Source: Candidatus Omnitrophota bacterium
GTDB lineage: Bacteria > Omnitrophota > Gorgyraeia > Aquiviventales > Aquiviventaceae
Reading direction: 5' to 3'
NCBI GenBank assembly: GCA_016193195.1
Contig: JACPSQ010000035.1
Coordinates: 2,435-55,360, forward strand
Length of the DNA stretch: 52,926 nt
The notes beneath the pieces are model-generated. The model ran no database searches. It had not been told where the DNA came from and was given only the letters and a program-made list of their open reading frames with translations. Each line of letters opens with the position of its first letter. Position 1 is the stretch's first letter. Both the position numbers and the translations under genes were made by a program. Of the stretch, positions 12,443 to 35,514 are shown piece after piece.

Positions 12443-12461
12443 GGTGATGGATGAAGGAAGG

Positions 12462-12857
12462 ATGCGATTGATTCTCCTGGGTGCTGGCTCAATCGGGCGG
12501 CGTCACCTCCAGAATGCCCTGGCGTTGGGGCATGAGGTGGTGGCCGTCGCTGATCCCGATCCCTCGAGCCTGGGGCTGGTCCGACGCCAGTGGCACATCC
12601 CCGTGCTGACGGCAGACGTCTCGGAGGCGTTTCGACAGCGGGCCGAGGCGGCGGTGATCTGTTCGCCGACCGTAGAGCATGTGTCGCAGGCTCGGTGGGC
12701 GGTGCGCGAGGGCCTCCATGTGCTTGTTGAGAAACCCCTTTCGCACACGCTGGATCAGGTGGATGAACTGATTGCGGAAGCGGCTGCCGCCCAGCGGGTT
12801 GTCCTCATCGGATGTAACCTGCGGTTCTTCCCAAGCTTGCAGGGGAGTGCTCCTTGA
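12462..12857 (+). pseudogene. Gfo/Idh/MocA oxidoreductase, N-terminal Rossmann fragment ending at a frameshift/deletion
   Basis: ATG 12462 is preceded by 'gaaggaagg'. The sequence reads 'MRLILLGAGSIGRRHLQNALALGHEVVAVADP...VICSPTVEHVSQARWAVREGLHVLVEKPLS...LIGCNLRFFPSLQ', then GSAP-stop. The matching C-terminal domain continues in another frame (next feature). Confidence 0.7.
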
Positions 12858-16217: not shown

Positions 16218-16230
16218 CATCAGGTCATCC

Positions 16231-18102
16231 ATGCGGATCGTATTCCTGGGAAATAACTGGGTCGCGTGGCAGGCGCTTCGCTGGTTGAAGGCCCAAGGCG
16301 AATTGATCGTGGGATTAGTGGTGCATCCGCCCCACAAGCAGCGCTATGGCGAGGAGCTGCTCAGCACCGTGGCAGGTGATGCGACGAAGTGCTTTGACGG
16401 CTCGCGGCTGCGGGAGCCGGGAACGATTGCGGCCATTCGGGATCTTCAGGTTGAGATGGCCGTGTCCGTCTCGTTTGGTTACCGCTTGGATCCGTCGTTC
16501 CTGGCGCTGTTCCCGCGCGGGGTCATCAACCTCCATGCAGGCTACCTCCCGTACAACCGGGGCACGCATCCCAACATCTGGAGCATTGTCGAAGGGACCC
16601 CGGCTGGCGCGACGCTCCATTACGTCGATGCCGGGATCGACACGGGAGACATTATTGCACAACGAGCGATTCCAGTGGAGCCAACGGACACGGGTGAGAC
16701 GCTGTATCGAAAGCTTGAACGAGTCTGCATGGAGCTGTTGATGGCAACGTGGCCGTCAATTCGCGACGGCACGGCACCTCGGCACCCACAGCCGTCAGGA
16801 GGCACGGCGCATCAGCGGCGGGATGTGGAGCGCATCGATGAGATCGCACCCGAGCGCCGGTATACAGCTAGGGAATTGATCGACATCCTTCGCGCACGGA
16901 CCTTCCCTCCCTACCCCGGAGCCTATCTCCGGCATGGGGGGCAGAAGATCTCCCTGCGTCTTTCTGCCGCCAAGGAAGACCACCCCGCCCCATGGCTTCA
17001 GCCAACGATTGATATCGGGTGCCGGCGTATTGGTGCTGGCTATCCAACCTACATCGTTGCGGAGATTTCAGCGAATCACAACCAGGACTTTGAGCTGGCC
17101 GTGAAACTGCTTCAGGCGGCCAAGGCTGCCGGGGCGGATGCGGTGAAGCTGCAAACCTACACCCCAGAGACCATGACGATTCCTTGTCACCGCGAGCCGT
17201 TTCAGATCAAGGGCACCCTGTGGGATGGACAGACCCTCTACGATCTCTACCGCCGAGCGTACACGCCGTGGGAGTGGCACCCAAAGCTGAAAGCGGTCGC
17301 GAACGAGATGGGTCTCGATCTGTTTTCGACCGCCTTTGACGCCACGGCTGTGGATTTCCTGGAATCCCTGGGGGTGCCGGTTCATAAGGTCGCTTCGTTT
17401 GAGATGGTGGATCTGGCTTTGTTGGCGAAGATGGCCCTGACCGGCAAGCCGGTGATCCTCTCGACAGGGATGGCAACCTTCCAGGAGATCGCTGAAGCGG
17501 TGCAGACCGTTCGCGGGGTGGGTGCGACGACACAAGTCGCGCTGCTCAAGTGCACAAGTGCCTATCCCGCACTTCCTGAAGAGATGAACCTGCGTGCCAT
17601 CCCGCACTTGACCGAGCAGTTTCAGGTACCCGTCGGCCTCTCGGATCACACCCTGGGCACGTCCGTTGCACTTGCCGCAGTCGCGCTTGGCGCCTGCATG
17701 GTGGAGAAGCATTTGACCCTCTCTCGCTCTGTTGCCACGCCGGATGCGGCCTTTTCCCTTGAGCCCGACGAGTTCAAGGCGATGGTGAAAGGGGTTCGGG
17801 AGGTGGAGCGGGCCCTGGGAGAGGTGCGTTATGGAGTCAGTCGTGGGGAGACCCAGAGCCAGGTCTTCCGGCGTTCCCTGTTCGTGGTGAGAGGGATGAA
17901 AGCCGGAGAGGTGTTTTCAGAGCGGAATGTCCGGTCGATCCGGCCGGGTTATGGGCTCCACCCCCGATACCTGAAGGACGTGTTGGGGCGGCAGGCGAGG
18001 TGTGATATTGCTGGGGGGACACCCTTCGCGTGGAAACTGGTGGACCCAGCGGGAGCAGAGGCTGCCTCGCCGGAAGAACCGAGTGCCAAGCGTGTGACCT
18101 GA
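16231..18102 (+). CDS. pseI: Fusion: Fmt-like N-formyltransferase domain + pseudaminic acid synthase (PseI/NeuB family) with SAF domain
   Basis: I prefer ATG 16231 ('MRIVFLGNNWVAWQALRWL'). The formyltransferase triad context is 'INLHAGYLPYNRGTHPNIWSIVEGTPAGATLHYVDAGIDTGDII'. The synthase part starts around 17005: 'TYIVAEISANHNQDFELAVKLLQAAKAAGADAVKLQTY', 'VGLSDHTLG', 'MVEKHLTL', and SAF 'SLFVVRGMKAGEVFSERNVRSIRPG'. Confidence 0.85.
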   Translation: MRIVFLGNNWVAWQALRWLKAQGELIVGLVVHPPHKQRYGEELLSTVAGDATKCFDGSRLREPGTIAAIRDLQVEMAVSVSFGYRLDPSFLALFPRGVINLHAGYLPYNRGTHPNIWSIVEGTPAGATLHYVDAGIDTGDIIAQRAIPVEPTDTGETLYRKLERVCMELLMATWPSIRDGTAPRHPQPSGGTAHQRRDVERIDEIAPERRYTARELIDILRARTFPPYPGAYLRHGGQKISLRLSAAKEDHPAPWLQPTIDIGCRRIGAGYPTYIVAEISANHNQDFELAVKLLQAAKAAGADAVKLQTYTPETMTIPCHREPFQIKGTLWDGQTLYDLYRRAYTPWEWHPKLKAVANEMGLDLFSTAFDATAVDFLESLGVPVHKVASFEMVDLALLAKMALTGKPVILSTGMATFQEIAEAVQTVRGVGATTQVALLKCTSAYPALPEEMNLRAIPHLTEQFQVPVGLSDHTLGTSVALAAVALGACMVEKHLTLSRSVATPDAAFSLEPDEFKAMVKGVREVERALGEVRYGVSRGETQSQVFRRSLFVVRGMKAGEVFSERNVRSIRPGYGLHPRYLKDVLGRQARCDIAGGTPFAWKLVDPAGAEAASPEEPSAKRVT

Positions 18103-18115
18103 TCCGGTTGGTACG

Positions 18116-19234
18116 GTGATGGCGGTGGTGTTGTTTCGGACAGACGCTGCTCCTGCAGTTGGCCTCGGCCACCTGCGACGGTGCCTTTCGCTGGCGGCAG
18201 CGCTCCAACGGCAGGATGTGCGCAGTGTGTTTGTGGTCCCGGAGGATCGACAGGTTCGCCGGTGCGTCAGGGAGGCAGGGTGCAGCATCGAGATCGTGGA
18301 GCGTGTCACGGCGGGGGATGCCGTTGATCTGCAGCACGTGCTCCGTGCGGCAAGCCGCTCCGAGGCCGCCGCGGTGATCGTGGATTCCTACCAGATCGGT
18401 GCGGACTACCTGGAGGCGCTTCGGCAGGCAGGACTGTATGTCGCGGTCATTGATGATCTGGCAGCCATGGCCTTTCCGTGCCACGTGGTGGTCAACGGTG
18501 GGCCGCATGCGTGCCGGTTGCCGTACCGTTCGTCCTCCGGGGAAACCACGTTCTTGCTCGGTCCCTCCTATGCGTTGCTGGGTCCAGCATTCTGGAACGT
18601 TGGCCCTCGACCGGTGCGCCAGACCGTGCAGCATGTCCTGCTCACGCTGGGCGGGGCGGATCCTCATCACCTGATGCCGAGGCTGCTGGGCCTGCTCGAC
18701 GATCTCCCTGGCGAGTTTGGCGTCACGGCCGTGATTGGCCCATTCTTCCAGAACCGTCTTGAGGTTCAACATGTGGCCAAGCGGTGCCAACGAACGGTGA
18801 GGCTCGTTGATGCGCCGGCGTCCCTGCGTGACCTGATGCTCGAGGCGGACCTTGCTGTGTCGGCTGGCGGACAGACCTTGTTCGAGCTGGCGCGTGTGGG
18901 ATGTCCCGCCGTTGCCGTCAGGACCGCATCGAATCAGGTCGCTCAGCTACGGGCCTTTGTGGAGTCTGGAGCTATGCGCCTTGCAGGAGACGCCGGGGAT
19001 GCCCACGTGATGGCTGCCGTACGTGACAGCGTGGCCTCATTGGTGGGGGATCAGGGGGAACGAGGTCGCATGAGCCTGGCGGGCCGTCGGCTCGTCGACG
19101 GACGAGGCGCCCAACGGACCGCCGACGCGATTGCAGCGGGGATTCGGACGCGGCTGGCCGCGGCGATCAAGCGCAATGAGGTGGAGCACCGGCTCGAAGG
19201 GCGCATGGTCTCGCCGGTGTTTCGGACGGCGTGA
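18116..19234 (+). CDS. pseG: PseG-like UDP-2,4-diacetamido-2,4,6-trideoxy-beta-L-altropyranose hydrolase (GT28-C-like fold)
   Basis: 'VVLFRTDAAPAVGLGHLRRCLSLAAALQRQDV', 'VLLTLGGADPHHL', 'ADLAVSAGGQTLFELARVGCPAVAV'. The start is GTG 18116 or ATG 18119. Confidence 0.8.
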   Translation: MMAVVLFRTDAAPAVGLGHLRRCLSLAAALQRQDVRSVFVVPEDRQVRRCVREAGCSIEIVERVTAGDAVDLQHVLRAASRSEAAAVIVDSYQIGADYLEALRQAGLYVAVIDDLAAMAFPCHVVVNGGPHACRLPYRSSSGETTFLLGPSYALLGPAFWNVGPRPVRQTVQHVLLTLGGADPHHLMPRLLGLLDDLPGEFGVTAVIGPFFQNRLEVQHVAKRCQRTVRLVDAPASLRDLMLEADLAVSAGGQTLFELARVGCPAVAVRTASNQVAQLRAFVESGAMRLAGDAGDAHVMAAVRDSVASLVGDQGERGRMSLAGRRLVDGRGAQRTADAIAAGIRTRLAAAIKRNEVEHRLEGRMVSPVFRTA

Positions 19235-20515: not shown

Positions 20516-21061
20516 ATGGGATCACGGCTGTGCCTGCGACCACTGACGGAGGCTGACGTGACCACGGAGTACCTGAGGTGGCTGAACGATCCCGAGGTCA
20601 CGCGGTTCCTCGAGGTCGGTCGGCAGCGCTCCACGCGCCAGACGGTGCGCAGGTACCTCACGCGGTTCCACGGCAGCCGAACGGACTTCATCTTTGCGAT
20701 GATCGAGAGGGAGACCGGACGCCACATCGGCAACGTCACCCTCAATCGGATACATCGAGTTGACCGCACGGCCGATACGGGCCTGATGATCGGACGGAAG
20801 GACCTGTGGGGAAAAGGATATGCCAGCGAGGCCTGGAGTCTTGTGCTGGCGCATGCGTTCCGGGATCTTGGGGTGCGGAAGGTGGTAGCGGGGGTGGTAG
20901 TGGACAACGTCCGGAGCCTCCAGGCCCTGAAGAAAGTTGGTTTTCGCGTTGAAGGGGTCCTTCGCCAAGAGTGGTTCGTCAACGGGACCTACAAGGATAT
21001 CGTGCGGCTCGGCCTGTTCAGCCATGAGTTCGAGCCTAAGAGCGCTCTAAAGGGTGGATGA
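20516..21061 (+). CDS. GNAT-family N-acetyltransferase (RimJ/RimL-like; candidate PseH-type step)
   Basis: I prefer ATG 20516 ('MGSRLCLRPLTEADVTTEYLRWLNDPEV'). Also 'IGNVTLNRIHRVDRTADTGLMIG...WGKGYASEAWSLVLAHAF..LGVRKVVAGVVVDNVRSLQALKKVGFRVEG'. Confidence 0.8.
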   Translation: MGSRLCLRPLTEADVTTEYLRWLNDPEVTRFLEVGRQRSTRQTVRRYLTRFHGSRTDFIFAMIERETGRHIGNVTLNRIHRVDRTADTGLMIGRKDLWGKGYASEAWSLVLAHAFRDLGVRKVVAGVVVDNVRSLQALKKVGFRVEGVLRQEWFVNGTYKDIVRLGLFSHEFEPKSALKGG

Positions 21062-23046
21062 TGAGCGGGGAGCGATTGCGGGTCATTGTGGGTCGGCTGG
21101 CGGAGGGCGCCGTCCTCCCCGACGGAGGCCTGACGACGCTGTACGAGGCGGGTCGCCTTACGATCCAAGGCGACACCGACACGGTGCGGCTCGCCCAGGG
21201 GAACCGCGAGCTCGCCCTCCTGGTCGGAGAGGTCGTGGGGGTGCGCCATGGGGCGGGGGCTTTGCGCAGGCCATCGTCGGCCCAGGAGGCGGTGGGGGTG
21301 GCCCTCCGGGCGGATCACGCCCGCTGGCGGGAGGAGCTGGAGGGACGGTTCATCCTTCTGCGAGTGGACGGCGAGCGAGCGGTGATCGAGAGCGACCGGT
21401 TCGGCCAGAAGGAGCTGTATCTTCAGCGCGACCGCGGCGCCACCGTGCTCGCCACAGACCTCAGCCTGCTCTCGATCGCCCCGGGGGCGGCGGGCTACGA
21501 TCAGGCGGCGCTTGCGCACACGCTGTGCATCTACGGCTATCGCCCCCCGAAACGGCATACCCTCTATCGGGATGTCCGACGTCTCGGCGTCGGGGAATGG
21601 GTGGAGATCGCCGAGGGGGCTGTGCGCGTCGCAGAGCACCCCTTTCAACCCCTGGCGATGGGGGCGTACGGGGAACGGGAGCTGCAGGCGTACGCCAAGA
21701 CGCTGCTGGATGCCGTGGCGCTGCGCGGCTCCCGCCACGGGAACGTCGTGTATCTCTCCTCCGGATGGGATTCGACGGCCCTCCTGGCCTGCCTGGTGAA
21801 GGTCTTCGGGCCCCGCAAGGTCCGGGCAGTCATCGGGCGGATGCAGTATGCCGAGCGTAGCGGGGTGATCAACCAGTTTGAGATTGACCGGGCCCGGGCC
21901 GTCGCCGACTACTTTGGCGTGCGGCTCGACGTCGTGGAGTTTGATTACCGGGCTGAGGGGCCTGCGGTGGCGGAGCGGTTGCAGCCGCTCCTGCGATCCC
22001 ACCAGTTCCACAGCCTGGCCGCCCTCAACGAGGCGCTCCTCGCCGAGGGCGTGGCGCGCACGGCCGATCGCCCGGAGGTCGTCTTCGCCGGGGAGATCAG
22101 CGATGGGGCGCACAACCTCGGCTTCAGCCAATTCACGACGATCTTCCACCCGATGCTGGAGTTTCGGGAGTATAGCGACAAGATGGCCAGCTATCTCTTC
22201 GGCCCGACGTTCTTGGGGCTCCTGGAGCGCGGCCAGGGGGTCCACGATGTGGTGTATCAGTTGCTGCGAGGCCGCTGCGGCGAGGCGAGCTTCGATGAGC
22301 CGTCGCCGGACCGCGTGACGCGGCGGATGCAGCTGCTCGCCGGCTTTTTCCTCCGGGCGCATCGGATCCCGCTGTGGTCGGTGCGCAACCATCGGCTGCT
22401 CACCGCGGCCGGACAGGACCTGTACAGCCATGAGATGGAGGAGACGTACCTTCGCGCCGCCGCCGAGGCGCTCACCCCAGAGACCGTGTACGCGTGGCTG
22501 CTCCATCTGTACAACTCGTTCCATTGGCAGGGATCGACCGTGGCGCCGATGGCCATTACGGCACGAGCCCAGGGATTGCGGCTGGTGCTCCCGTTTTGGG
22601 ACAGCTGGCTCCAGGCTTTTCTGTCCGCCATGCCGGAATCCTGGGGCAGGAGCCTTGATCTGAACCCCACCAAATATCCGCTCAAATGGATGTTGAAGCA
22701 CCGGATTGACTATCCGTTGCATCTCCAGACGGGTCCGCATTCCTACCTCTATGACGTGGATCCCAATTTCAGCCATGGAGCGGAGATCCTCTACGGCTCC
22801 GCCTTCACGCCGTATTTCAGGACCCTGCTCAAGGGGCGCCCATACGACGAGGTCTTATCTCATCGGGTCTTTGACCGTGCGTACATCGAGGCGATCGTGG
22901 AGCGGTATCTTCAGGGAACCGAGGTGCGGGGCGCGGAGATGAACGACCTCCTCGCGCTGGCCTTCCTCTCGATGGTGGGATGGTACGGCGGGAGCGGTCT
23001 CTCGGAGACCGCTGACTCTGCGGTGGCCCTGCGTGCCAGGGACTAA
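21058..23046 (+). CDS. Asparagine-synthase-family ATP-dependent amidoligase homologue lacking the N-terminal Cys nucleophile
   Basis: It starts MMSGERLRV, with no Cys2. An AsnB N-domain trace remains ('DRFGQKELYL...VLATDLSLL'). The PP-loop is a variant, 'VVYLSSGWDSTALLACLV'. The start overlaps the GNAT stop (ATGA). Confidence 0.8.
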   Translation: MMSGERLRVIVGRLAEGAVLPDGGLTTLYEAGRLTIQGDTDTVRLAQGNRELALLVGEVVGVRHGAGALRRPSSAQEAVGVALRADHARWREELEGRFILLRVDGERAVIESDRFGQKELYLQRDRGATVLATDLSLLSIAPGAAGYDQAALAHTLCIYGYRPPKRHTLYRDVRRLGVGEWVEIAEGAVRVAEHPFQPLAMGAYGERELQAYAKTLLDAVALRGSRHGNVVYLSSGWDSTALLACLVKVFGPRKVRAVIGRMQYAERSGVINQFEIDRARAVADYFGVRLDVVEFDYRAEGPAVAERLQPLLRSHQFHSLAALNEALLAEGVARTADRPEVVFAGEISDGAHNLGFSQFTTIFHPMLEFREYSDKMASYLFGPTFLGLLERGQGVHDVVYQLLRGRCGEASFDEPSPDRVTRRMQLLAGFFLRAHRIPLWSVRNHRLLTAAGQDLYSHEMEETYLRAAAEALTPETVYAWLLHLYNSFHWQGSTVAPMAITARAQGLRLVLPFWDSWLQAFLSAMPESWGRSLDLNPTKYPLKWMLKHRIDYPLHLQTGPHSYLYDVDPNFSHGAEILYGSAFTPYFRTLLKGRPYDEVLSHRVFDRAYIEAIVERYLQGTEVRGAEMNDLLALAFLSMVGWYGGSGLSETADSAVALRARD

Positions 23047-23057
23047 GAAGTTCCGTC

Positions 23058-25034
23058 ATGAGGCCGGAGATCTTCATTGAGCGGTTGACCCACGCGCACC
23101 GACCCCTCATCGCGTGGTGGGTCCGGCGCGGGCATCGGGTCTGTGTCTTTGACTTTGACCACTGTGCGCGGCTGCGATCATTCGGGTGGCTGCGCAGGCT
23201 GCTGGACCAGGGCAAGGTCGAAACCATCTACGTGCCTTCGAGCTCGGTAGCCGACTCGCTGGCCATTGACACGGCCGAGCGGTTCTTTCCCGCTTTCTCG
23301 TCCCACCCGTTGGTTCGAGCGATGGGAAGGATCTTTGGGGAGCACGAAGCGGCCCCCGTGCTGAAGAAGGCGCTAGTGGAGAGTCTCTTTCGGTATTTCT
23401 ATATCAAGCAGTCCCTCACAGATCGGGCTCGAGGGGCATCGGGTCGGCAGGCGGCGATCGTCGTCTCATCCCTCTATTGGGCCTGGGAGGTGCGCCTGCG
23501 CGAGGTGGCCCGCGACGTGCCGACCCCAGCGCCCACGAGTTGCCCCTGGTGGGCTCGTGGGTATGACGCGGTGGCCAGAAGGATCCAGGACGTCCTGTGG
23601 TCTCTCGCCGTATGCGGGGGGATCCTGCTCCATGCGGGCTCGATCATCGTGGGGAGGATGCTGGCGAGATCCCAGCCGGCTCTGCAGCAGGCCGATCACG
23701 TCTTCGCGGTGGATTCGCCCTTCCAGGTGAAGTTCCAGGGGCCGCGGCGAGCCGACTTCTTGCTCGACCACCAGCAGGTGACGAAGCAGAACACGGTCTT
23801 TGTCGTGCACCGGCTTGGCGAGGGGCCCTGGATCCAGCAGGCCCGGTGCGCCGGCTATCGGCTGATTCGCCAGGCGGAGTTCGCCGATGTGCGGCATCCG
23901 TGGCGGCACATGCGTCAGCCGCCCCGCAGCGTGCGCCTGGGGCCCGCCCTGCGAGCCGGAGGCTGCCTGGCGGCGCACCCGTGGGCCGCCGGGTGGCTGG
24001 TGGACGCGGCCGGGCGTGGCCTGGTCGCCTACCTCACGAAGTCCGCCCTGCTGGAGCGGGTCAACTTTGTCAACTACGTCTATATGGACCAGGATCACCT
24101 GTCGCAGCAATGCCTGAATATCCTCATTCGAAAGCAGGGAGGTCAGAGCTGGAACTTCGCTTACGCGATCGGAGGCGGTTACCTCTATGGGAATGGGCAG
24201 GTACCGGGGCATCGCCAGCGGCGGCTCGCGTACCAGAACCCGGATCACTTTGTCGGCACGAGTCAGCGGATGACGCGCTACCATCAGGAGCACCGCCAGG
24301 GGGTCCGCGCATACCACGCCGTCGGGAACCTCTGGTCGCAGTCGGTGTCGCTTGCGGCGAGCGCGACGGACATCCGGCGGCTTCGGTCGGCCTGGTTTGG
24401 CGCTGCGGCCGATCAGGGCAGGGTGGTGGCGTGGTTTGACACCACCTTCATCGAAGGGGCCGGCTCCCCCAGCACCTATCATGAGGCGGTCGCCTGGTAC
24501 CGGGACATCTGGCGGATAGTGAGCGAGGACGAACGGTTGCTCGCGGTGATCAAGCCGTCAAAGGACGACGCCTGCTTCGTGGACGGCCGTTCCCAGCTCA
24601 TGCACCCGCTGGGCCAGTCGGTGATCGGGGAATGGGCGCGACTGAAGCAGCATCCGCGGGTGCATTTTGCGGGACATGCCATCGATCCTTCCCTCGTAAT
24701 TGCCGCCAGCGACCTGACCGTGACCTTTTGCTTTTCCTCGCCGACTGCCGAGGCGCTGGGGGCAGGCAAGCGGGCGATGTGGTATGAACCGGGCGAGCGC
24801 TGGCGGGATACCCTCTACGGGGCCGAGCCGCTGTTGGTCGCCCATGGGTATCCTGAGCTGCGCCGGCTCGTGGGCACGCTCCTCAACGACATGGACGATG
24901 AGGCGTATCGGCAGTTCCTTGAGAGGCGCGTTCGGGGTTTGGTCGAAGACTTCCTGGATGGGAACGGGCTCTCCAGGTTCCGTGAGCTGCTCGCCGACGC
25001 CGCGCGGCCGGCGGCCTGGAGCCCCCGCGCATGA
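23058..25034 (+). CDS. Hypothetical 658-aa protein, possible GT-B-like C-terminal domain
   Basis: A long ORF with the local codon bias. The only family-like feature I recognise is the C-terminal 'HPRVHFAGHAIDPSLVIAASDLTVTFCFSSPTAEALGAGKRAMWYEP', reminiscent of GT-B/capsule-type transferases. Confidence 0.7.
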   Translation: MRPEIFIERLTHAHRPLIAWWVRRGHRVCVFDFDHCARLRSFGWLRRLLDQGKVETIYVPSSSVADSLAIDTAERFFPAFSSHPLVRAMGRIFGEHEAAPVLKKALVESLFRYFYIKQSLTDRARGASGRQAAIVVSSLYWAWEVRLREVARDVPTPAPTSCPWWARGYDAVARRIQDVLWSLAVCGGILLHAGSIIVGRMLARSQPALQQADHVFAVDSPFQVKFQGPRRADFLLDHQQVTKQNTVFVVHRLGEGPWIQQARCAGYRLIRQAEFADVRHPWRHMRQPPRSVRLGPALRAGGCLAAHPWAAGWLVDAAGRGLVAYLTKSALLERVNFVNYVYMDQDHLSQQCLNILIRKQGGQSWNFAYAIGGGYLYGNGQVPGHRQRRLAYQNPDHFVGTSQRMTRYHQEHRQGVRAYHAVGNLWSQSVSLAASATDIRRLRSAWFGAAADQGRVVAWFDTTFIEGAGSPSTYHEAVAWYRDIWRIVSEDERLLAVIKPSKDDACFVDGRSQLMHPLGQSVIGEWARLKQHPRVHFAGHAIDPSLVIAASDLTVTFCFSSPTAEALGAGKRAMWYEPGERWRDTLYGAEPLLVAHGYPELRRLVGTLLNDMDDEAYRQFLERRVRGLVEDFLDGNGLSRFRELLADAARPAAWSPRA

Positions 25035-27449: not shown

Positions 27450-28441
27450 TGCTGCCAAACCCAGAGCTCGTGCAGCAGCTCTTTCAGGCGTACTATGCGA
27501 CTGAGCCAGCCCGTCAGGAGGCCTACGTCTCATCCCATTGGGCCGACTACAGCGGCCAGTTCGACGTCATCATGGACTCCGAGGGCAGCATCCGCAAGTT
27601 GGTGGGCAGAGGGTTTGGGGGCATGACCACGCGCAATCCGCTGGAGGTCCTGGTTCAGTATGCCGGCCACCTCTCGTATCTCTCCTGGCTCCCGAATCGC
27701 CGGGAGATCCTGGCCTTGATGCGGGTCGCTCAACCGGTCTGCCTGGCGATGGGGTTTTTCCTCTCCTTCGATGCCTTCAGGCAATTGTGTGCCTTGGCGC
27801 TCATCCGAGGGTGGATGAGTCCTGCGGTGCGTGCAAAACGTTTAACCGTCCTGATGATCGGGGACGGGTACGGATTCCTCTCGTCCATGGTGAAGACCCT
27901 CTACCCCAGGGCAACGCTCGTGCTGGTGGATATCGGCCGAACCCTCTTGTTCCAGAGCATCTACTGTCAGCGGGCGCACCCGACCGCCAGGCATTACGGG
28001 ATGACTGGGGATCGGCTCAACGAGGCCGCAACGCTGGCCGACCACGATTTCATCTATTGTCCGACGGAATACCTCGATGCCGTGCGGCCCTTGCGCTACG
28101 ACCTCGCGGTGGCGATCGCCTCCCTGCAGGAAATGAACGCCGCGACCGTGGAGCGCTACTTTCGGTTCTTGAGGGACCGTCTGCACGAGGACCATCTCTT
28201 CTACTGCTGCAACCGGGAATCCAAGGTCCTGCGGGGAGGCGAGGTCTCGACGTTCGCCGGGTATCCGTGGGATCCGCGCGATCGCCACCTTGTGGATGAG
28301 CGTTGTCCGTGGTACCAGTATGCCTGTTCCTGGCGGACGTGCGGCCCGGGGCCTCGCCTCTTCGGTCTGAGGGTTCCGTTCATCAACGCCTTTGACGGGC
28401 CGTTTCGGCATCGTCTTTCGATCCTAGCTCGGAGGTCGTGA
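27446..28441 (+). CDS. Putative SAM-dependent (sugar O-) methyltransferase
   Basis: ATG 27446 makes an ATGA overlap with the GT2 stop. The class I motif-I-like stretch is 'LTVLMIGDGYGFLSSMVKTLYPRATLVLVDIG'. The remainder is not confidently assignable. Confidence 0.55.
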   Translation: MMLPNPELVQQLFQAYYATEPARQEAYVSSHWADYSGQFDVIMDSEGSIRKLVGRGFGGMTTRNPLEVLVQYAGHLSYLSWLPNRREILALMRVAQPVCLAMGFFLSFDAFRQLCALALIRGWMSPAVRAKRLTVLMIGDGYGFLSSMVKTLYPRATLVLVDIGRTLLFQSIYCQRAHPTARHYGMTGDRLNEAATLADHDFIYCPTEYLDAVRPLRYDLAVAIASLQEMNAATVERYFRFLRDRLHEDHLFYCCNRESKVLRGGEVSTFAGYPWDPRDRHLVDERCPWYQYACSWRTCGPGPRLFGLRVPFINAFDGPFRHRLSILARRS

Positions 28442-30291
28442 TGGGGTCTTCGGGATTGATGATCGGCTCCCGTCTCGTTGACGAGCAGCACCCGCTCCTC
28501 ATCGCCGAGATCGCCTCGGCGCACGACGGTCAGGTGGAGCAGGCCTGTGCGCTGGTCCGGGCGGCGGCCGATGGGGCAGGCGAGGCCGTCAAATTTCAAC
28601 TGGTGATCGCGGAGGAATTGCTCACGCCCTCCCACCCGGACTTCGAGATGTTCCATCGCCTGGAACTCAAGCTGCAGGACTGGCAGACAGTGGTGGGGGA
28701 AGCGCGCCAACGGGGATTGATCTCGAGTGCCGATGTGTTCGGGGAGCAGAGCCTTCGGCTCGCCCAAGACCTCGGGATCCAGCTGCTGAAGATCCCCTCG
28801 TCCAGCTTGACGGATCCGGTCCTGGTTCCCCTCGTGGCCTCGCGGGGTGTGCCCACCCTGCTCTCTGTTGCGGGGGCGACGGAGGAGGAAATCGCGTGGG
28901 TGGTTGAGCAATTCCGGCAGGCCGGGCATCGCGCGTTTGTCCTGATCCACGGCTTTCAAGGCTTTCCGACCCCGCTGGCGGCGACGCACCTCAACAGGCT
29001 GTCTTGGTTGCGTCAGCGCTTTGCATGCCCTGTGGGACTTTCCGATCACCTCCCGGCCGACACGGCGGTCGCGCGACACCTGCCGCTTGTCGCGGTGGGG
29101 TTGGGCGCATCGGTGATTGAGAAGCACCTGACGCAAAGCCGCAGCCGGCGAGGTCCTGACTGGGTGTCCGCGCTCGAACCGGCTGAATTTGGGCAGCTTC
29201 AGGAGGCGCTGCGACACATAAGTGCGGCGTTCGGTCCTGAGGAGGGAGCGTGCTGGATGGAGGGGGAAGCGCGGTACCGCCGGCAGATGCGTCGGCAGCT
29301 CGTGGCTGGGCGGACCCTTCAGGCCGGCGAGATCCTCACCGCCGACAAGATCACTCAACGTCGCGCCATCGCGCCGGGCAGCATGGATCCCTGGTTTTTC
29401 CCTCGGCGGGTGGCGGGCAAGACCTTGCGGCGGTCGTTGTCACCGGATGAGGCGATCACGTGGGACTCGCTGAGCGATCCCCTCGTGGCGGTCCTGATCG
29501 CCGTCCGCATGAAGTCGGCCCGGCTTCCTCGCAAGGCGCTGGCGGATCTTGCCGGAAAGCCCGTCATCGAACGATTGGTGGAGCGGATGAAAACCGCCCG
29601 CCATCCCCAGCGGCTGGTGCTCTGCACGTCCACCCATGCCGATGACCGGGTCTTGGTGGAGCTGGCCAGGCGGTTGGGGATCGAGTGGGTCTGCGGGGAG
29701 GAAGAGGATGTCATGGCGCGATTCCTCCGCGCCGCCGAACAGACGCAGGCCGAGCTCATCGTGCGCGTGACAGGGGATAACCCGCTGACGGACGCCGAGA
29801 CGATGGATCGGATGATCGTCAGCCACCTCGAGCGCGACGTGGAGTACACCTACACGGACGACCTCCCCTTCGGCACCCGCCCCGAGATCATCTCCGTGGA
29901 AGCCCTGCGGCGCGTCCAGGCCTTGGCGGAAGATCCTGGGCAGACCGAGTACATGACCGCCTACCTCAAGCAGCCCGAGGCCGTGAAGTCCTACCGGTAT
30001 GTCGTGCAGGACGCGCAGCTGGTTCGACCCCACTACCGGCTCACCCTGGACACCCCTGAGGATCTCGCAGTGTTGCAGCAGATCTACGCGCGGTTCGGCC
30101 CCGACGGATCAACCGTGTCGTTGCGGGAGGTGATTCGGCTGCTGGATCAATCGCCGGAGCTGGTGGCGATGAATGCCGCCGTGCAGCAGCGTCAGGTCGC
30201 CGGCGTGATCAATGCGCGTCTGCGGGCTCCACGCGCGCCTGCGGAGGCAGGCGTCGTGGACATTGCAGGAGGGGATGAGGATGCTCGGTAG
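28438..30291 (+). CDS. Fusion: NeuB/SpsE-like synthase with SAF domain + SpsF/PseF-type cytidylyltransferase
   Basis: 'PLLIAEIASAHDGQVEQACALVRAAADGAGEAVKFQLV', 'LLSVAGATEEEI', 'VGLSDHLPAD', 'VIEKHLTQ', and SAF 'QLVAGRTLQAGEILTADKI'. From about 29480: 'VAVLIAVRMKSARLPRKALADLAGKPVIERLV', 'VCGEEEDVMARFL', 'VRVTGDNPL', 'RLTLDTPEDL'. Confidence 0.85.
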   Translation: MMGSSGLMIGSRLVDEQHPLLIAEIASAHDGQVEQACALVRAAADGAGEAVKFQLVIAEELLTPSHPDFEMFHRLELKLQDWQTVVGEARQRGLISSADVFGEQSLRLAQDLGIQLLKIPSSSLTDPVLVPLVASRGVPTLLSVAGATEEEIAWVVEQFRQAGHRAFVLIHGFQGFPTPLAATHLNRLSWLRQRFACPVGLSDHLPADTAVARHLPLVAVGLGASVIEKHLTQSRSRRGPDWVSALEPAEFGQLQEALRHISAAFGPEEGACWMEGEARYRRQMRRQLVAGRTLQAGEILTADKITQRRAIAPGSMDPWFFPRRVAGKTLRRSLSPDEAITWDSLSDPLVAVLIAVRMKSARLPRKALADLAGKPVIERLVERMKTARHPQRLVLCTSTHADDRVLVELARRLGIEWVCGEEEDVMARFLRAAEQTQAELIVRVTGDNPLTDAETMDRMIVSHLERDVEYTYTDDLPFGTRPEIISVEALRRVQALAEDPGQTEYMTAYLKQPEAVKSYRYVVQDAQLVRPHYRLTLDTPEDLAVLQQIYARFGPDGSTVSLREVIRLLDQSPELVAMNAAVQQRQVAGVINARLRAPRAPAEAGVVDIAGGDEDAR

Positions 30292-31351
30292 GTATTATCA
30301 AGAAGTGGGATGGCTCAGGCGCAGGGTCGCCGCGGCGAGAGAGTTGTGGAAGCGCCGATTCGAGTGGCGGTTTCTCCTGTACCGGGCGAAGTTTCATTGG
30401 TCGCATCGGCTGGATCTGCCCAGCGCCTTTCCCGCCCACCTCGATATCGAGACCACCGACGCGTGCAATCTCCGTTGCATCATGTGCGTGCAGGGCATCG
30501 GGGAAGGAGTCAAGGATACCGGCATGATCGAGATGGACTTTGCGAAACGGCTCATTGATGAAGGGGCTCGCAATGGCCTCTACTCGATCAAGTTCAACTG
30601 GCGGGGCGAACCCGCCCTTCATTCGGGATTGGCGGAGCTGGTGCGCTATGCCAAAGCGCGGGGGATCCTGGAGGTGCAATTCAACACCAACGGGATTCCC
30701 TACACGGAGTCCAAAATCAGGGAGCTGGTGTTGTCCGGCCTTGATCGGGTGATCTTCTCCATGGATGGCGCGTCGAAGGACACGTATGAGCGCATCCGCG
30801 TGGGAAGCAGCTACGACAAGCTCGTCGAGAACGTGAAGTTCTTTCATGCCATCCGGGAGGCCCTGGGCCGGGAACGGCCGTTCATCCGCATTCAGATGGT
30901 TCGGATGAAAGCCAACCAGCACGAGGTCGACCAGTTCGTGGAGATGTGGAAGCCCTTCGTGGACGACATTCGGATTGAGGATGTGTCGGACCGCGGCCAA
31001 GGTGAGCAACTCTCCGTGGGGGACTGGGTCACGACAGGCCGGAAGCGCTGCCCGCAACCCTGGCAGCGCATGGTCGTCTCTCGAGATGGGAAGGTCCTGC
31101 CGTGCTGTGCGGACTGGCATCGCGAGTTCATCATCGGGGACGCGACCCAGGAATCCCTGAAGGCGATCTGGCGTGGCAAGCGGATGGAGATGATGCGCCA
31201 GGTGCAGCGGGAGGTCCGGTTGGATCAGGTCAGCCCCTGTCGCCAGTGCTACGTCAAGGAGAGTTTTGTGTGGAAGCGGCGTCCCACGCCGGCGGCGAGC
31301 GAGCCGCCCGAGACCCCGCAGCCGCATGAGGACGCCGACGTCACGGTGTAA
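30275..31351 (+). CDS. Radical SAM enzyme with a partial SPASM/Twitch-like C-terminal Cys domain
   Basis: The CX3CX2C motif is 'ETTDACNLRCIMCVQG'. 'IKFNWRGEPAL' is the GGEP-like element. The C-terminus reads 'CPQPWQRMVVSRDGKVLPCCADW...SPCRQCY'. Start is ATG 30275 or 30281, the latter after 'ggagggga'. It overlaps the upstream stop. Confidence 0.85.
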   Translation: MRMLGRYYQEVGWLRRRVAAARELWKRRFEWRFLLYRAKFHWSHRLDLPSAFPAHLDIETTDACNLRCIMCVQGIGEGVKDTGMIEMDFAKRLIDEGARNGLYSIKFNWRGEPALHSGLAELVRYAKARGILEVQFNTNGIPYTESKIRELVLSGLDRVIFSMDGASKDTYERIRVGSSYDKLVENVKFFHAIREALGRERPFIRIQMVRMKANQHEVDQFVEMWKPFVDDIRIEDVSDRGQGEQLSVGDWVTTGRKRCPQPWQRMVVSRDGKVLPCCADWHREFIIGDATQESLKAIWRGKRMEMMRQVQREVRLDQVSPCRQCYVKESFVWKRRPTPAASEPPETPQPHEDADVTV

Positions 31352-31355
31352 CCCG

Positions 31356-32492
31356 ATGCCGACGGTGAGGATTGGACAGAAGCTGATCGGCCCCGGCCAA
31401 CCGGTGTTCGTCATTGCGGAGGCCGGGTGTAATCACGGATGCAATCTCCAGGTGGCGAAACGGATGGTCCGTCAGGCGGCGTGGGCCGGGGTGGATGCGA
31501 TCAAATTCCAGACCTACAAAGCCGAGCTGCTGGCGACGCGGACCGCCCCGACGTACTGGAAGCGGACGCCGGGTGCCCCGCGAACCCAATTTGAATTCTT
31601 CAAGCAGTTGGATCATTTCGATCGTGCGGACTACGCGGCGTTGGCGGCGGAGTGCCGCCGCGCCGGTCTGCTCTTTTTATCGACGCCGTGGGATTTCCAC
31701 AGCGCGGATATGCTTGATGAGCTCGGGGTGCCGGCCTTCAAGATCGGTTCCGCCGATCTGACCTACCTGCCGCTCATCCGACACTGCGCTAGCAAGGGAA
31801 AGCCCATCCTGCTCTCAACCGGCGCGGCGACGATCGAAGAGATTGAGGAGGCGGTCCGGACGGTCCGAGCCGTCGGGAACCGCCAGGTGATCCTGTTACA
31901 CTGCATCCTGGCCTATCATACGCTGCCTCACGATGTGCATCTCGCGATGATCGGAGAGCTGCAGCGCCGGTTTCCGGACTATCCGGTGGGATTTTCGGAT
32001 CATACGATTGCGGATGAACACCTGACGATCCAGACCGCTGCGGTCGCGCTGGGGGCCTGCGTGGTTGAGAAGCACTATACCTTAAACAAGCGTGCCCCTG
32101 GAAACGACCACTGGCACTCCCTGGAGCCGCGTGAGTTCAGACAGATGATCGCTAACGCTCAGCTCGTGCAAGCGGCGATGGGGCGCAGTGGTCCACGGGT
32201 GCCGCTGCCGTGCGAGCGACCCGCGAGACGGTTTGCCCGTCGCAGTCTCGTGGCGCTGCATGACATCCCCAAAGGCTCCGTCATCACGGCCTCCGATCTG
32301 ACCTGCAAGCGGCCTGGGACCGGCATTTCACCAGGACAGCTCGACCGGGTGGTCGGAGCACGAGCCAAGCGAACGATTCTCGAGGACACGGTGATCACAT
32401 GGTCCATGGTGGATGGATGCCATCCCACACGCCTCCCGGTGCGTGGCGGGACATCTGAGGGAGCGAGGCGCCGTGAGCCCATTGCCGCTTGA
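31356..32492 (+). CDS. NeuB-family nonulosonic acid synthase with SAF domain
   Basis: I prefer ATG 31356 ('MPTVRIGQKLIGPGQPVFVIAEAGCNHGCNLQVAKRMVRQAAWAGVDAIKFQTY'). Also 'LLSTGAATIEEI', 'VGFSDHTIAD', 'VVEKHYTL', and SAF 'SLVALHDIPKGSVITASDLTCKRPG'. Confidence 0.85.
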   Translation: MPTVRIGQKLIGPGQPVFVIAEAGCNHGCNLQVAKRMVRQAAWAGVDAIKFQTYKAELLATRTAPTYWKRTPGAPRTQFEFFKQLDHFDRADYAALAAECRRAGLLFLSTPWDFHSADMLDELGVPAFKIGSADLTYLPLIRHCASKGKPILLSTGAATIEEIEEAVRTVRAVGNRQVILLHCILAYHTLPHDVHLAMIGELQRRFPDYPVGFSDHTIADEHLTIQTAAVALGACVVEKHYTLNKRAPGNDHWHSLEPREFRQMIANAQLVQAAMGRSGPRVPLPCERPARRFARRSLVALHDIPKGSVITASDLTCKRPGTGISPGQLDRVVGARAKRTILEDTVITWSMVDGCHPTRLPVRGGTSEGARRREPIAA

Positions 32493-35400
32493 GATCGATC
32501 CCCCGCACGTCACCATTCATCTCCAAGGCGGACGGCAGATCGGCATGGGGCATGTCGTCCGGATGCTCTGGCTGGCCCAGAGCCTCACGGCGCGGGGGCT
32601 GGCGGTGGAGATGCTCCTCCGAGGAGAGCCGGAAGCCGCCGCCATGATTCGGCAGGCGGGCTTCCCGGTGCAGGCCTATTCTGCCGGAGCGTCTGCCGTG
32701 GTCACGGTGGAGCGTTACCTCGACCAGCCGGGTCCGCAACCCTCGGTCTGGGTCAACGATTGTCTGACGGTGAGCCCCTCGGTGCACGCGGCGCTTCAGC
32801 GTCGAGCGATTCCCATCGTTTCGCTGGATGACGAGGGCCGAGGCCTGAGCCGTCTGGATCTTGTCGTCAATGCCATGCCCGCGTTCTGGCAAGAGGCGCT
32901 TCCCACAGGGGCGCAGATGTATCAAGGCCCCGAGTACATGATTCTCAATCCGCTGGTCAAGGTGTATCATGACCGGCCCAGACCAATCCGCACGCGGCCC
33001 AGCCAGGCCGTGGTGACGCTGGGGGGCAGCGATCCGCATGGGGTGATCTTCAACGTGCTCCGGGCTCTCGCGACCATGCCCTCCGCGCTTGAATGGCATG
33101 TGTTTGTCGGGCCGCTCTTTGCCCATCGTCGCGCGCTCGACCGGTGGCAGAAGCGCCTGGCTGGGCAGGTGTGTCTCCGCTGGCATGACGGGCAGTCCGA
33201 AGTGATCCCGACGTTTGCCCAAGCGGACGTGGCGATCTGCGCGAGCGGCCACACCCTCTTTGAAATGCTGAGTGTGGGCACGCCGGTCTTGGCAATCGCG
33301 AACGCCAGGCACGAAATCGTCAACGGCAGATATTTTGCCTCACTGGGTGCCTGCCATTTCCTTGGGCTGCATACCGCTGTGACCCCAGGTCGCATCGGGC
33401 AGGCGGTTCGTCAATTACTGGCGGATCCAACCCAGCGGGCGCGTCTCTCGCAGCGGGGCCAGTCCTACATCGATGGACGTGGGGCTGAGCGGGTGACGGA
33501 GCTGCTCGAACGTCTCGCCAGGCGTCCCGTGTCGGCCAGACGCGTGGTGGAGGCGGTGGAGCAACAGGCTCACGCGGCAGCTCCGACTGGACCGACGGCC
33601 CGGGAAGACGGACACCCCGGCGTGTTGCTGTGCGATCGGTTGGAGCCTCTGATGAGGCTCTCGAGGCGGCATGGGCTCTCGCAGGCGCGATTCATTGTGC
33701 TGTCAGAGACTTCGGAACACGCTGCCATCCGCGGATGGCTTCGTGAGCGGCTCGGGGCGGAGGAACTGCCCTATGTGGAATTGTCGCGGGCGCGCCGGCA
33801 GGCATTCCAGCCTCGGTATATCGAGTTCATTGGGCGGTTCAACCGGACGCACCGCTCGCCGTTTTGGTTGGCGATGCCGTTTACGGCCAAGAGCATGCTC
33901 TCAACGGGGTTGTGCCGCAATACGTTCCAGTTCCTCCTCATCGTGGAGTTGCTCCAGACCAGCGACCGGCCACTGATCGTGATCACTCATAACCGGACCA
34001 TGGCTGACCAGGTGGTGTTATGGGCACGGGTCCAGCCCCGATGGGTGTGCAATGCGGTCCGTGGCCGTTCGGTCCTGAAACGCCTCTTCAAACGTTTCAC
34101 CCCGCTGGCGATCCTTGTGGCGATGATTCGGACCTCGGTGGTGTGGGTCCTGAGCAGGCGATTCCGGCTGGACGGGGACCGGTGGCGTGATGCCACCATC
34201 GTGGTGACGACATTTCCGAATTCGTCCATCCAGCTTCCGGTCTACCGAGAAGCCTATTTTGGGTCCCTGCCGGCCTCCTTGACTCAACACGGCCAGCGGG
34301 TGGTGCTGTTTGCCTTGTATGCGGAGCGCGCGCTGTCGCACATCCTGGCGCTGCGCCGTGTCAGCCAAGGCCTGCCGGTGGTCCCGCAGGAGGCCTACCT
34401 GACCTGGCCAGATCTCTTGGCCTGTGGCGTTCGGGCCCTCATACAGTGGATGAAGCGGTTTCCGTATCGTGAGCCGGTGCAGATCGATGGGATCAGCGTG
34501 GACGTCTTGGTCGAGCGGGAAATCGCTGAGAGCTGCCAGTCGAGGAGCCTCTTCTGGCATTTGTGCATCGCCGCGGCGGCTCGACGGCTGGGTCAGCGCC
34601 TTGCCCCTGCCAGGTGCTTGTATCCGTTCGAGAACCGCGCGTGGGAGAAAATGTTCCTGATCGGCCTGCGGGAAGCCTCGCCCCATACCGAGACGATTGG
34701 CTATCAACATACCGTCTTTACCTTCGCGCATACGAACCTGTTCTTCGGGGAAGGCGAGGCGAGACTCACGCCGCTCCCCAATTGCATTCTCACGGCTGGA
34801 GAGGTCACGAAGCAGCGTCTTGAAGAGCATGGTCGGTATCCGGACGGTTTGTTGAGGCTGGGGTGTGCCTTGTATCAACGGCAACCGCAATCGCTGGAGC
34901 GCCGGACGTCCCGTCCGGTTCAGCTCACGAATCTCTTGGTCGCGCTCAGCAACGACCGAGAGGAGTATGTCCGCGTGTTGCAGTTTTTGCGGGAAGCGCT
35001 GGCGGACCTCCACGGCTATCAGATTCGGCTCCGCCCGAACCCGGGGCTTGGCGTCCGGCTCCTGGAGGAGGCCCTGGCGACGGTCCGCCACCCCGCAGGG
35101 GGCCGCTACGATGTCAGCCGGACATCCTTGCCTGAAGACCTGCGCTGGGCTCACGTCGTGCTCTACGCCTCCTCCTCGGTCGCCCTCGCTGCGCTCAGCC
35201 ATGGGATCCCGGTCATCTTTGTGGATGTCGGGAAATTCCTCGATCCTGATCCGTGCCTGGCGATGCACGATCTCAAGTGGGCGGTGGACGAGCCTTCAGC
35301 GTTGCATCCGACCCTCCGCCGGATCGCGGCCCTCCCCGATGAGATGTTTGAGCTCCAACAACGGCGCGCCCTCGCGTATGTTGAGCGCTATTTCCCTGCG

Positions 35401-35514
35401 CCCACCGAGGCGCGGCTCCAGGCCTTCAGGCAGGCGGAGGACGCACGCGACCCCGACGTGGCTGAGGCGGCGGCTGACGCGCGACCGGAAGCTGGGCTGA
35501 CCACGGTTGCATAA
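32473..35514 (+). CDS. Fusion: PseG-like (GT28-C-type) domain + ~650-aa region of unknown function
   Basis: GTG 32473 is in frame with the ORF-track start 32413, which lies deep inside neuB. The PseG-like part is 'VTIHLQGGRQIGMGHVVRMLWLAQSL', 'VVTLGGSDPHGV', 'ADVAICASGHTLFEMLSVGTPVLAI'. After about aa 400 I see no motif I can assign, except the GT-B-like 'HVVLYASSSVALAALSHGIPVIFVD'. Confidence 0.75.
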   Translation: MSPLPLEIDPPHVTIHLQGGRQIGMGHVVRMLWLAQSLTARGLAVEMLLRGEPEAAAMIRQAGFPVQAYSAGASAVVTVERYLDQPGPQPSVWVNDCLTVSPSVHAALQRRAIPIVSLDDEGRGLSRLDLVVNAMPAFWQEALPTGAQMYQGPEYMILNPLVKVYHDRPRPIRTRPSQAVVTLGGSDPHGVIFNVLRALATMPSALEWHVFVGPLFAHRRALDRWQKRLAGQVCLRWHDGQSEVIPTFAQADVAICASGHTLFEMLSVGTPVLAIANARHEIVNGRYFASLGACHFLGLHTAVTPGRIGQAVRQLLADPTQRARLSQRGQSYIDGRGAERVTELLERLARRPVSARRVVEAVEQQAHAAAPTGPTAREDGHPGVLLCDRLEPLMRLSRRHGLSQARFIVLSETSEHAAIRGWLRERLGAEELPYVELSRARRQAFQPRYIEFIGRFNRTHRSPFWLAMPFTAKSMLSTGLCRNTFQFLLIVELLQTSDRPLIVITHNRTMADQVVLWARVQPRWVCNAVRGRSVLKRLFKRFTPLAILVAMIRTSVVWVLSRRFRLDGDRWRDATIVVTTFPNSSIQLPVYREAYFGSLPASLTQHGQRVVLFALYAERALSHILALRRVSQGLPVVPQEAYLTWPDLLACGVRALIQWMKRFPYREPVQIDGISVDVLVEREIAESCQSRSLFWHLCIAAAARRLGQRLAPARCLYPFENRAWEKMFLIGLREASPHTETIGYQHTVFTFAHTNLFFGEGEARLTPLPNCILTAGEVTKQRLEEHGRYPDGLLRLGCALYQRQPQSLERRTSRPVQLTNLLVALSNDREEYVRVLQFLREALADLHGYQIRLRPNPGLGVRLLEEALATVRHPAGGRYDVSRTSLPEDLRWAHVVLYASSSVALAALSHGIPVIFVDVGKFLDPDPCLAMHDLKWAVDEPSALHPTLRRIAALPDEMFELQQRRALAYVERYFPAPTEARLQAFRQAEDARDPDVAEAAADARPEAGLTTVA

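Follow-up and report, generated by a model that had tools for sequence, protein, structure and literature searches.

We studied two paralogous genes, FA and FB, that lie in a 52,926-nucleotide stretch of an Omnitrophota metagenome-assembled genome (MAG). This stretch, called the window in what follows, belongs to contig C80 of the MAG (assembly GCA_016193195.1; 1.04 Mb, 64% complete, ~65% GC) and forms one long plus-strand glycan locus of the O-antigen type. Flagella, capsules, O-antigens and archaeal S-layers carry nonulosonic acids (pseudaminic, legionaminic and sialic acids), sugars whose biosynthetic routes are regarded as well mapped. FA and FB each join a NeuB-like TIM barrel and a SAF domain to an SpsF-type cytidylyltransferase (CT), and they are long-diverged representatives of a two-domain module that is widespread and uncharacterised. 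The two genes and the domains of FA have the following window coordinates.

28438..30291, + strand: FA, fusion of NeuB-like TIM barrel, SAF domain and SpsF-type CT (617 amino acids; Pfam, NCBIfam, AlphaFold2 and Foldseek)
28495..29238, + strand: NeuB-like TIM-barrel domain of FA (residues ~20-267)
29299..29472, + strand: SAF domain of FA (residues 288-345; R309 is the kept equivalent of Arg314, see below)
29488..30207, + strand: SpsF-type CTP_transf_3 domain of FA (residues ~351-590)
13189..14931, + strand: FB, paralogue of the FA fusion (580 amino acids)

Domain architecture of the two fusions

A sequence-only reading of the window had assigned the same NeuB, SAF and CTP_transf_3 architecture to both open reading frames (ORFs), and Pfam placed all three domains on the plus strand as proposed there. 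For FA the matches were NeuB at E = 2.4e-43 (148.8 bits), SAF at 1.8e-06 (28.8 bits) and CTP_transf_3 at 3.5e-23 (83 bits); the ORF that holds FB (12772..14931) gave 5.3e-44 (150.9 bits), 1.6e-05 (25.8 bits) and 3.5e-17 (63.4 bits) in the same order, each above its cut-off (22.1, 21 and 22.6 bits). The paralogy that had been read from the letters was borne out by a full-length alignment of the two proteins at 34% identity (E = 4e-95). FA starts with a GTG codon that overlaps the stop of the upstream gene. The closest homologues of FB were all ~580 amino acids long, and the ATG at 13189 is therefore taken as its true start, in agreement with the earlier reading. A triple fusion of Gfo oxidoreductase, NeuB-like domain and CT, spelled out by a 719-amino-acid ORF, was ruled out on the length of these homologues and on the existence of a separate, intact Gfo gene of 332 amino acids.

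By Pfam the module belongs to the NeuB and CTP_transf_3 superfamilies, but it does not reach the equivalog thresholds of NeuB or PseI: FA scored 183.1 bits with the NeuB model TIGR03569 (cut-off 399.65) and 151.5 with the PseI model TIGR03586 (cut-off 340.25), and FB scored 175.5 and 136.2 bits. The single-chain AlphaFold2 model of FA had a mean predicted local distance difference test (pLDDT) value of 91.7. Foldseek matched its N-terminal half to NeuB, PseI and 3G8R with template modelling (TM) scores of 0.74-0.83, and its C-terminal half to 6OEW (TM 0.90), followed by CMP-Kdo synthetases (TM ~0.63).

The cytidylyltransferase half

Motifs of the CT half were the P-loop AVRMKSARLPRKAL, VTGDNPL and LDTPEDL in FA, and CRASSSRLYAKPL, VTTENPF (with Glu for Asp) and VDYPEDL in FB. 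Alignment of both with KdsB and NeuA showed that the P-loop pattern R..S.R..K, GD(E/N)P and LDxPEDL were kept, and residues S360, K366, D538 and D542 were invariant in 35 sequences. By sequence, the closest solved relative was the Leptospira protein 6OEW (E = 2.7e-20). Judged by these motifs, the CT domains of FA and FB look active. In Bacillus subtilis an spsF mutant makes legionaminic acid that is not transferred to the spore, SpsF acting after synthesis (PMC7439481), and an SpsF-like domain of a Vibrio pseudaminic acid cluster has been proposed as a replacement of NeuA (PMC7371886). A role in activating the sugar acid with cytidine monophosphate (CMP), for which homology, motifs and the B. 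subtilis spsF genetics argue, is the best-founded part of our interpretation (see below).

The NeuB-like half and its active site

All the NeuB homologues of the window and of related loci (see below) were aligned to Neisseria meningitidis NeuB, whose numbering is used here, and were sorted by comparison with the canonical and fused copies of the window. His215 and His236 are the Mn2+ ligands; Lys53 and Lys129 bind the carboxylate of phosphoenolpyruvate (PEP), with Thr/Ser110 beside it, and Ser132, Ser154 and Ser213 plus position 184 bind its phosphate (PMC11339185). The aldose is bound by Gln55, Tyr186, Asp247 and Arg314, the last being a SAF residue of NeuB that completes the active site of the partner subunit (PMC11339185).

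Thr/Ser110, Cys182, Tyr186 and all three serines were nearly always present in the canonical synthases (n = 133). The divergent sequences, fused or adjacent to a CT (~200 sequences, here called the clade), kept Glu25, Gln55, Lys129, His215, Glu234, His236, Asp247 and Arg314 in 93-100%, which argues for a working metal and sugar site. Their signature consisted of Asp110 (~80%) with Gly182 and Gln184 (each >93%); position 213 was Ala, Leu, Met or Gln, positions 132 and 154 were variable, and Tyr186 occurred in fewer than half. All three phosphate serines occurred together in 7 of 198 clade members (a group that includes FA and its closest relatives), against 123 of 136 canonical sequences; 35 of the 198 had no serine at any of the three positions. 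The signature D110/G182/Q184 was absent from PseI (8H2C), SpsE (1VLI), NeuB (1XUZ) and 6NCS, which are all canonical.

FA keeps E25, K53, Q55, K129, S132, S154, S213, H215, E234, H236 and D247, and carries the substitutions N29A, T110D, E134S, N184Q and Y186F. FB departs further (E25D, N29S, H30Y, K53N, T110N, S132A, N184Q, Y186T and S213A) and retains the metal ligands, Q55, K129, S154, E234, D247 and R314, so that K129 and S154, one of the three serines, are its only remaining PEP ligands. It also retains all 19 residues that are invariant in an alignment of 35 family sequences. In the subclade of FB, Lys53 and Asp110 have both become Asn, and this joint change suggests that the two residues are paired in the clade. 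By residue conservation, the metal and sugar site of the N-terminal domains is under strong constraint and the PEP side is remodelled, mildly in FA and strongly in FB.

The opening motifs quoted in the sequence-only reading, AEIASAHDG in FA and ADMALSYEG in FB, were found as given, as were SDH or ADH and EKH in the two proteins. The diverged opening motif proved to be a trait of the whole clade and not peculiar to the window. It had been taken to indicate an aldose other than those of the neighbouring PseI and NeuB copies; the pocket does differ from theirs, but on the alignment the most telling divergence lies on the PEP side and not on the aldose side, where Q55, D247 and R314 are kept.

The phylogeny, for which FastTree was the only method used, placed the divergent half in a single clade (SH-like support 100). 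Members with and without the fusion were interleaved on this tree, requiring at least 9 changes of state, and FA and FB fell in separate subclades. The canonical-type sequences nearest to the clade (loci L050 and L056) themselves adjoin SpsF-type genes. No characterised or solved member of the clade was found in the Protein Data Bank (PDB) or the literature, 3G8R not having been compared residue by residue.

Distribution and gene neighbourhoods of the clade

A HMMER search of 1.84 billion representative proteins gave over 100 clusters (at 50% identity) of full-length fusions (~570-620 amino acids), which made up the majority of the 150 best clusters; longer fusions with extra domains were also among the matches. 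The fusion clusters span many bacterial and archaeal phyla, with named examples among MAG proteins from Omnitrophica, Elusimicrobiota and Nanoarchaeia, and their automatic labels are 'N-acetylneuraminate synthase family protein', 'N,N'-diacetyllegionaminate synthase' or 'legionaminate synthase', and 'SpsE/SpsF'. When one genome per species was scanned with an 11-sequence alignment, bacterial relatives were found in Desulfomonile, Nitrospira, Dehalococcoidales, Acidobacteria, Bacteroidota, Oligoflexia, Planctomycetes, Alphaproteobacteria (including the isolate Kiloniella laminariae), Prochlorococcus, Pelagibacteraceae and Verrucomicrobia, and archaeal ones in Hadarchaeota, Woesearchaeota and methanogens.

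We collected 53 species loci with 55 clade genes, whose ORFs were assigned by BLAST against the window proteins. An SpsF-type CT was fused to the clade gene in 8 of the 55 and adjacent to it (within 400 nt on the same strand) in 41, that is, fused or adjacent in 49. This disagrees, for this branch, with the statement in the sequence-only reading that synthase and CMP-activating enzyme are normally separate. The same reading had left room for the fusion being a common and characterised arrangement of ordinary specificity: it is common for the clade, although uncharacterised, and our search of the full-text literature found no study of either the fusion or the divergent clade. The clade is clearly large, monophyletic, uncharacterised and functionally locked to the SpsF-type CT.

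Well-flanked loci, with at least 6 kb on each side, numbered 36 of the 53, and 33 of these (92%) had a canonical synthase within 10 kb. Another intact CT was nearby in 8 of the 33, a CT-like domain with a degenerate P-loop, fused to GT2 or PseG, was the only other one in 4, and 21 had no other CT; the SpsF-type CT was therefore the only intact one within 10 kb in 25 of the 33, as in the window. Among the frequent neighbours were a class-III aminotransferase, a Gfo oxidoreductase and a radical SAM/SPASM enzyme. Whole-genome searches showed that carriers typically encode just a single canonical synthase, a single clade member and a single SpsF-type CT. This was also the case in a complete 10.2-Mb chromosome (G006), which besides these had only KdsB and a degenerate CT-PseG. 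Twelve genomes lacked a canonical synthase beside the pair; nine of them encode one elsewhere, and the other three, all MAGs, have none.

CT-like genes outnumbered synthases in some acidobacterial loci, several of them being fused to GT2 or PseG and having degenerate P-loops. Such degenerate NeuA-like CTs fused to GT2 or PseG occur at L016 5761..7293, L022 11767..13152, L034 12800..14509 and L041 12843..14552, immediately beside the divergent NeuB-like/SpsF pair, with P-loops such as PAMARQRDGQK and ARGGDPEVPYLN as compared with the normal ARGGSKGxPxKN. Given these P-loops, the GT2- or PseG-fused CTs may be inactive.

The two cassettes of the window

FA and FB lie in separate nonulosonic-acid cassettes, A and B, whose other genes are listed here.

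8388..9491, + strand: PseB-like dehydratase, at the front of cassette B
9484..10710, + strand: PseC-like aminotransferase, at the front of cassette B
10718..12442, + strand: B12-binding radical SAM enzyme, at the front of cassette B
12417..13188, + strand: broken Gfo/Idh/MocA oxidoreductase gene (N-terminal 146-amino-acid ORF at 12417..12857)
14934..16217, + strand: class-III aminotransferase, GSA-aminomutase-like (NF004856, 446 bits), conserved downstream partner of FB-type modules
16162..18102, + strand: formyltransferase domain plus canonical pseudaminic acid synthase (TIGR03586, 473.3 bits, above cut-off), canonical synthase of cassette B
18116..19234, + strand: PseG, UDP-sugar hydrolase (185 bits, above cut-off), sole hydrolase of cassette B
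30212..31351, + strand: radical SAM/SPASM enzyme, conserved neighbour of FA-type modules
31356..32492, + strand: canonical-type NeuB-family synthase of cassette A (AEAGCNHGCN; TIGR03569, 337 bits)
32413..35514, + strand: PseG-like hydrolase domain plus TIGR04326-type surface carbohydrate biosynthesis domain

Cassette B thus runs PseB, PseC, B12 radical SAM enzyme, broken Gfo, FB, class-III aminotransferase, formyltransferase-PseI and PseG, and cassette A runs FA, radical SAM/SPASM enzyme, canonical NeuB-type synthase and PseG-like hydrolase. The FA-type cassette is conserved in an Omnitrophica MAG (L001, 61% identical), where the two domains of 32413..35514 are two adjacent separate genes (367 and 605 amino acids). 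In three other relatives (L002-L004) the FB-type cassette has the order PseB, PseC, B12 radical SAM enzyme, Gfo, fusion, class-III aminotransferase, canonical PseI-type synthase, GNAT and PseG.

The Gfo gene is an intact, separate gene of 332 amino acids in L002-L004. The window copy has lost ~46 internal codons, with a frameshift at 12842/12845, and its last ~45 codons with the stop, so that the C-terminal remnant (12772..13188, 139 codons) runs in frame into FB; the gene call of the genome itself is a 694-amino-acid chimera. This lesion could be real decay or an artefact of MAG assembly.

The PseI copy, which the earlier reading had begun at 16231, was correctly described as canonical (473 bits against a cut-off of 340). 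Its formyltransferase part consists of Formyl_trans_N plus N_formyltrans_C, and the fusion of the two points to an N-formylated pseudaminic acid. Calling 31356..32492 a NeuB was right in so far as it is a canonical-type synthase, but its 337 bits are below the 400-bit cut-off for N-acetylneuraminic acid (Neu5Ac) synthases. Besides FA and FB there was no other CTP_transf_3 domain and no other nucleotidyltransferase in the 53-kb window. Elsewhere in the genome, the CTP_transf_3 domains above the Pfam cut-off were those of a NeuA beside a third canonical NeuB (contig C58) and of a KdsB-type gene (contig C77).

Comparison with known systems

The SpsE/SpsF pair of B. subtilis resembles the module in that the same two families act in consecutive steps, their genes are adjacent, and the CT is of the SpsF and not the NeuA type. 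SpsE (1VLI) differs from the NeuB-like half in having the canonical Thr110, Cys182 and Ser213 (in GFSDH) and in being the sole NeuB homologue of its pathway, whereas in the module the synthase-like half comes from a distinct clade, is joined to the CT and occurs alongside a canonical synthase. Campylobacter jejuni PseI (8H2C) and N. meningitidis NeuB (1XUZ) share with FA the TIM barrel and SAF domain (Foldseek TM 0.74-0.81), and with the module the His215/His236 metal site, Lys129, Gln55, Asp247 and Arg314. Identity to them is 23-27%, however, and the canonical Thr/Ser110, Cys182, Tyr186 and Ser132/154/213 are replaced or unconserved in the module, whose CT is KdsB/SpsF-like and without the ARGGSKG P-loop of NeuA and PseF.

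Two solved Leptospira borgpetersenii proteins, 6NCS (NeuB-like) and 6OEW (CT), are separate and have no published function; unlike the module, 6NCS has canonical residues (ATPF, HCVSSYP and GYSDH) and no SAF domain. The spiro-SPASM proteins of spirochaetes (TIGR04321, cut-off 250 bits) have an SpsF-like N-terminal part, matched far below this cut-off by the CTs of FA (41.2 bits) and FB (37.1 bits), and a radical SAM/SPASM C-terminal part, matched with 90.2 bits by 30212..31351, which is a separate gene here. An independent fusion therefore joins the same partners, an SpsF-like CT and a radical SAM/SPASM enzyme; spiro-SPASM lacks a NeuB domain and is likewise of uncharacterised function.

Possible roles of the module

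Our preferred reading, a tentative one, is that each fusion joins the CMP-activating enzyme of its cassette to a second, specialised condensing domain. The C-terminal domain would use cytidine triphosphate (CTP) to form the CMP ester of the nonulosonic acid or acids of the cassette, and since it is the only CT there, it probably serves the neighbouring canonical synthase too. The N-terminal domain would be a second, specialised metal-dependent condensing enzyme. Its substrate would be a variant of the same free 2-acetamido hexose that the sole PseG-type hydrolase produces, arising for example after oxidation and amination steps encoded alongside, and its product would be handed to the fused CT. 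We infer this reaction and substrate only weakly, with more credit for FA, in which all the PEP ligands are kept, than for FB. The numbers of synthases and CTs, three canonical synthases as against one NeuA and two fused CTs in the source genome, support a shared activator and do not settle the question.

Several observations weigh against this reading. All three phosphate serines persist in only 7 of 198 clade members, an Asp stands beside the PEP carboxylate, and FB is without Lys53; these changes cast doubt on an ordinary PEP-dependent condensation in FB and in a large part of the clade. FA itself stays far under the NeuB cut-off (183 bits against 400) and the PseI cut-off (151 against 340), and our search of the literature and the PDB found no clade member that had been assayed or solved. 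A mere second synthase gives no obvious cause for the 92% co-location with a canonical one. A shared activator is also not required everywhere, 8 of the 33 loci having an intact NeuA-type CT; a PseF or NeuA may be missing from the 64% of the genome that was recovered, and the broken Gfo gene means that cassette B may not be fully functional here.

The loss of the phosphate serines and the almost invariable company of a canonical synthase would be best explained if the N-terminal domain were no PEP-dependent synthase at all; the SpsF-type domain would then act as CMP-nonulosonate synthetase on what the canonical synthase beside it makes. We consider this possible, though on balance doubtful. 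The divergent domain may catalyse another metal-dependent reaction on the sugar acid or a precursor, pulled by the irreversible CMP activation, such as a C4 epimerisation by retro-aldol/aldol chemistry or a pyruvate-dependent aldol reaction. It may otherwise serve as an adaptor, a paralogue that forms the domain-swapped NeuB dimer with the canonical synthase and so tethers the CT to it; the conservation of the partner-completing SAF Arg314 speaks for this. D110 beside the PEP carboxylate site, and the co-occurrence of K53N and D110N in the FB subclade, which suggests a K53-D110 pair over a contact of K53 with PEP, agree with the absence of a synthase reaction. So do the typical genomes with a single copy each of canonical synthase, clade gene and SpsF-type CT, the presence of a canonical synthase no more than 10 kb away in 33 of 36 loci, and the 25 of 33 loci with no other intact CT. 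The L050 and L056 sequences fit a duplicated SpsE/SpsF-like pair whose CT-linked copy diverged. A pure adaptor, however, is unlikely to keep the metal histidines, E25, Q55, K129, E234 and D247 across bacteria and archaea. FA and its close relatives keep all the PEP ligands, 3 of the 12 genomes checked (all MAGs) hold a divergent homologue and no canonical synthase, and we found no precedent in the NeuB family for either activity.

The sequence-only reading had proposed a self-contained channel in which each fusion condenses PEP with a different aldose and activates its own product only; the canonical synthases would then use CTs elsewhere. We keep it as one of several readings, less likely than the preferred one and in our view improbable. 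Both domains of FA look catalytically competent, the Rosetta-stone logic of 49 fused or adjacent pairs in 55 applies, six loci (L020, L029, L033, L042, L044 and L046) have a separate intact NeuA-type CT beside the pair, which makes two synthase/activator pairs, and a PseF or NeuA may sit in the missing part of the source genome. Such a channel would nevertheless leave the canonical synthase without a nearby activator in 25 of 33 loci, and likewise in the complete chromosome of G006. Each cassette, moreover, has a canonical synthase and one PseG-type hydrolase, with no second PseG/NeuC-type hydrolase to supply a separate aldose, and FB, like most of the clade, has a degraded PEP pocket. Much less probable still is decay, with one copy (FB above all) or both being inactive remnants of a degenerating cassette. 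The two deletions and the frameshift in the Gfo gene directly upstream of FB could be so read, as could its E25D, shared by only one other member (P0122, 77% identical to FB), together with K53N, S132A and S213A. The Gfo lesion could also be an assembly artefact, the FB ORF is uninterrupted and lacks none of the 19 family-invariant residues, and its closest relatives occupy intact cassettes. Relatives at 60-77% identity share K53N, D110N, H30Y and S213A, which are therefore traits of the subclade and not of decay.

The clade probably marks an undescribed step or variant in the synthesis of nine-carbon surface sugars. The module is found from Pelagibacter and Prochlorococcus to Hadarchaeota and methanogens, and its active-site pattern, with a constant SpsF-type activator and canonical synthase partners, fits poorly to the textbook six-step pathways. 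If the divergent domain is not a synthase, the canonical synthase, the divergent NeuB-like protein and the SpsF-type CT would form a three-part unit, and this would be an undescribed step or organising principle in the biosynthesis of sialic-acid-like sugars in bacteria and archaea. If the role of the divergent domain were known, either a novel sugar acid or a novel enzymatic reaction would come to light, an annotation in wide use could be put right, and the enzyme that activates the sugar would be identified for the many clusters without NeuA or PseF. For the window alone the result is modest, two further members of an unstudied family.

Other genes of the window and genome

Two proteins of ~660 amino acids encoded at 21058..25034 of the window had weak family matches only: one is AsnB-like without clear domains, and the other resembles the PFTS-motif polysaccharide protein (TIGR04417, 42 bits). 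Their equivalents of ~690 amino acids come after the FB-type cassette in L002-L004. The 1.04-Mb genome has five NeuB-family domains, and its third nonulosonic-acid cluster (contig C58, ~59400..76500) comprises NeuA, SDR, canonical NeuB, NeuC-like epimerase, HisH/HisF-like and amidotransferase-like genes. The KdsB-like paralogue on contig C77 (11695..12507; ARMxSSRFPGKPL...EHVRRRV), regarded for a time as a candidate for the absent activator, passes the cut-off of the KdsB model and lies with HAD, aldolase-like and 2-hydroxyacid-dehydrogenase-like genes. KdsB-like paralogues were also located 10-22 kb from the NeuB-like/SpsF pair in three other genomes (G001:C59:10218-10844, G009:C7:231597-232223 and G012:C2:84267-84911).

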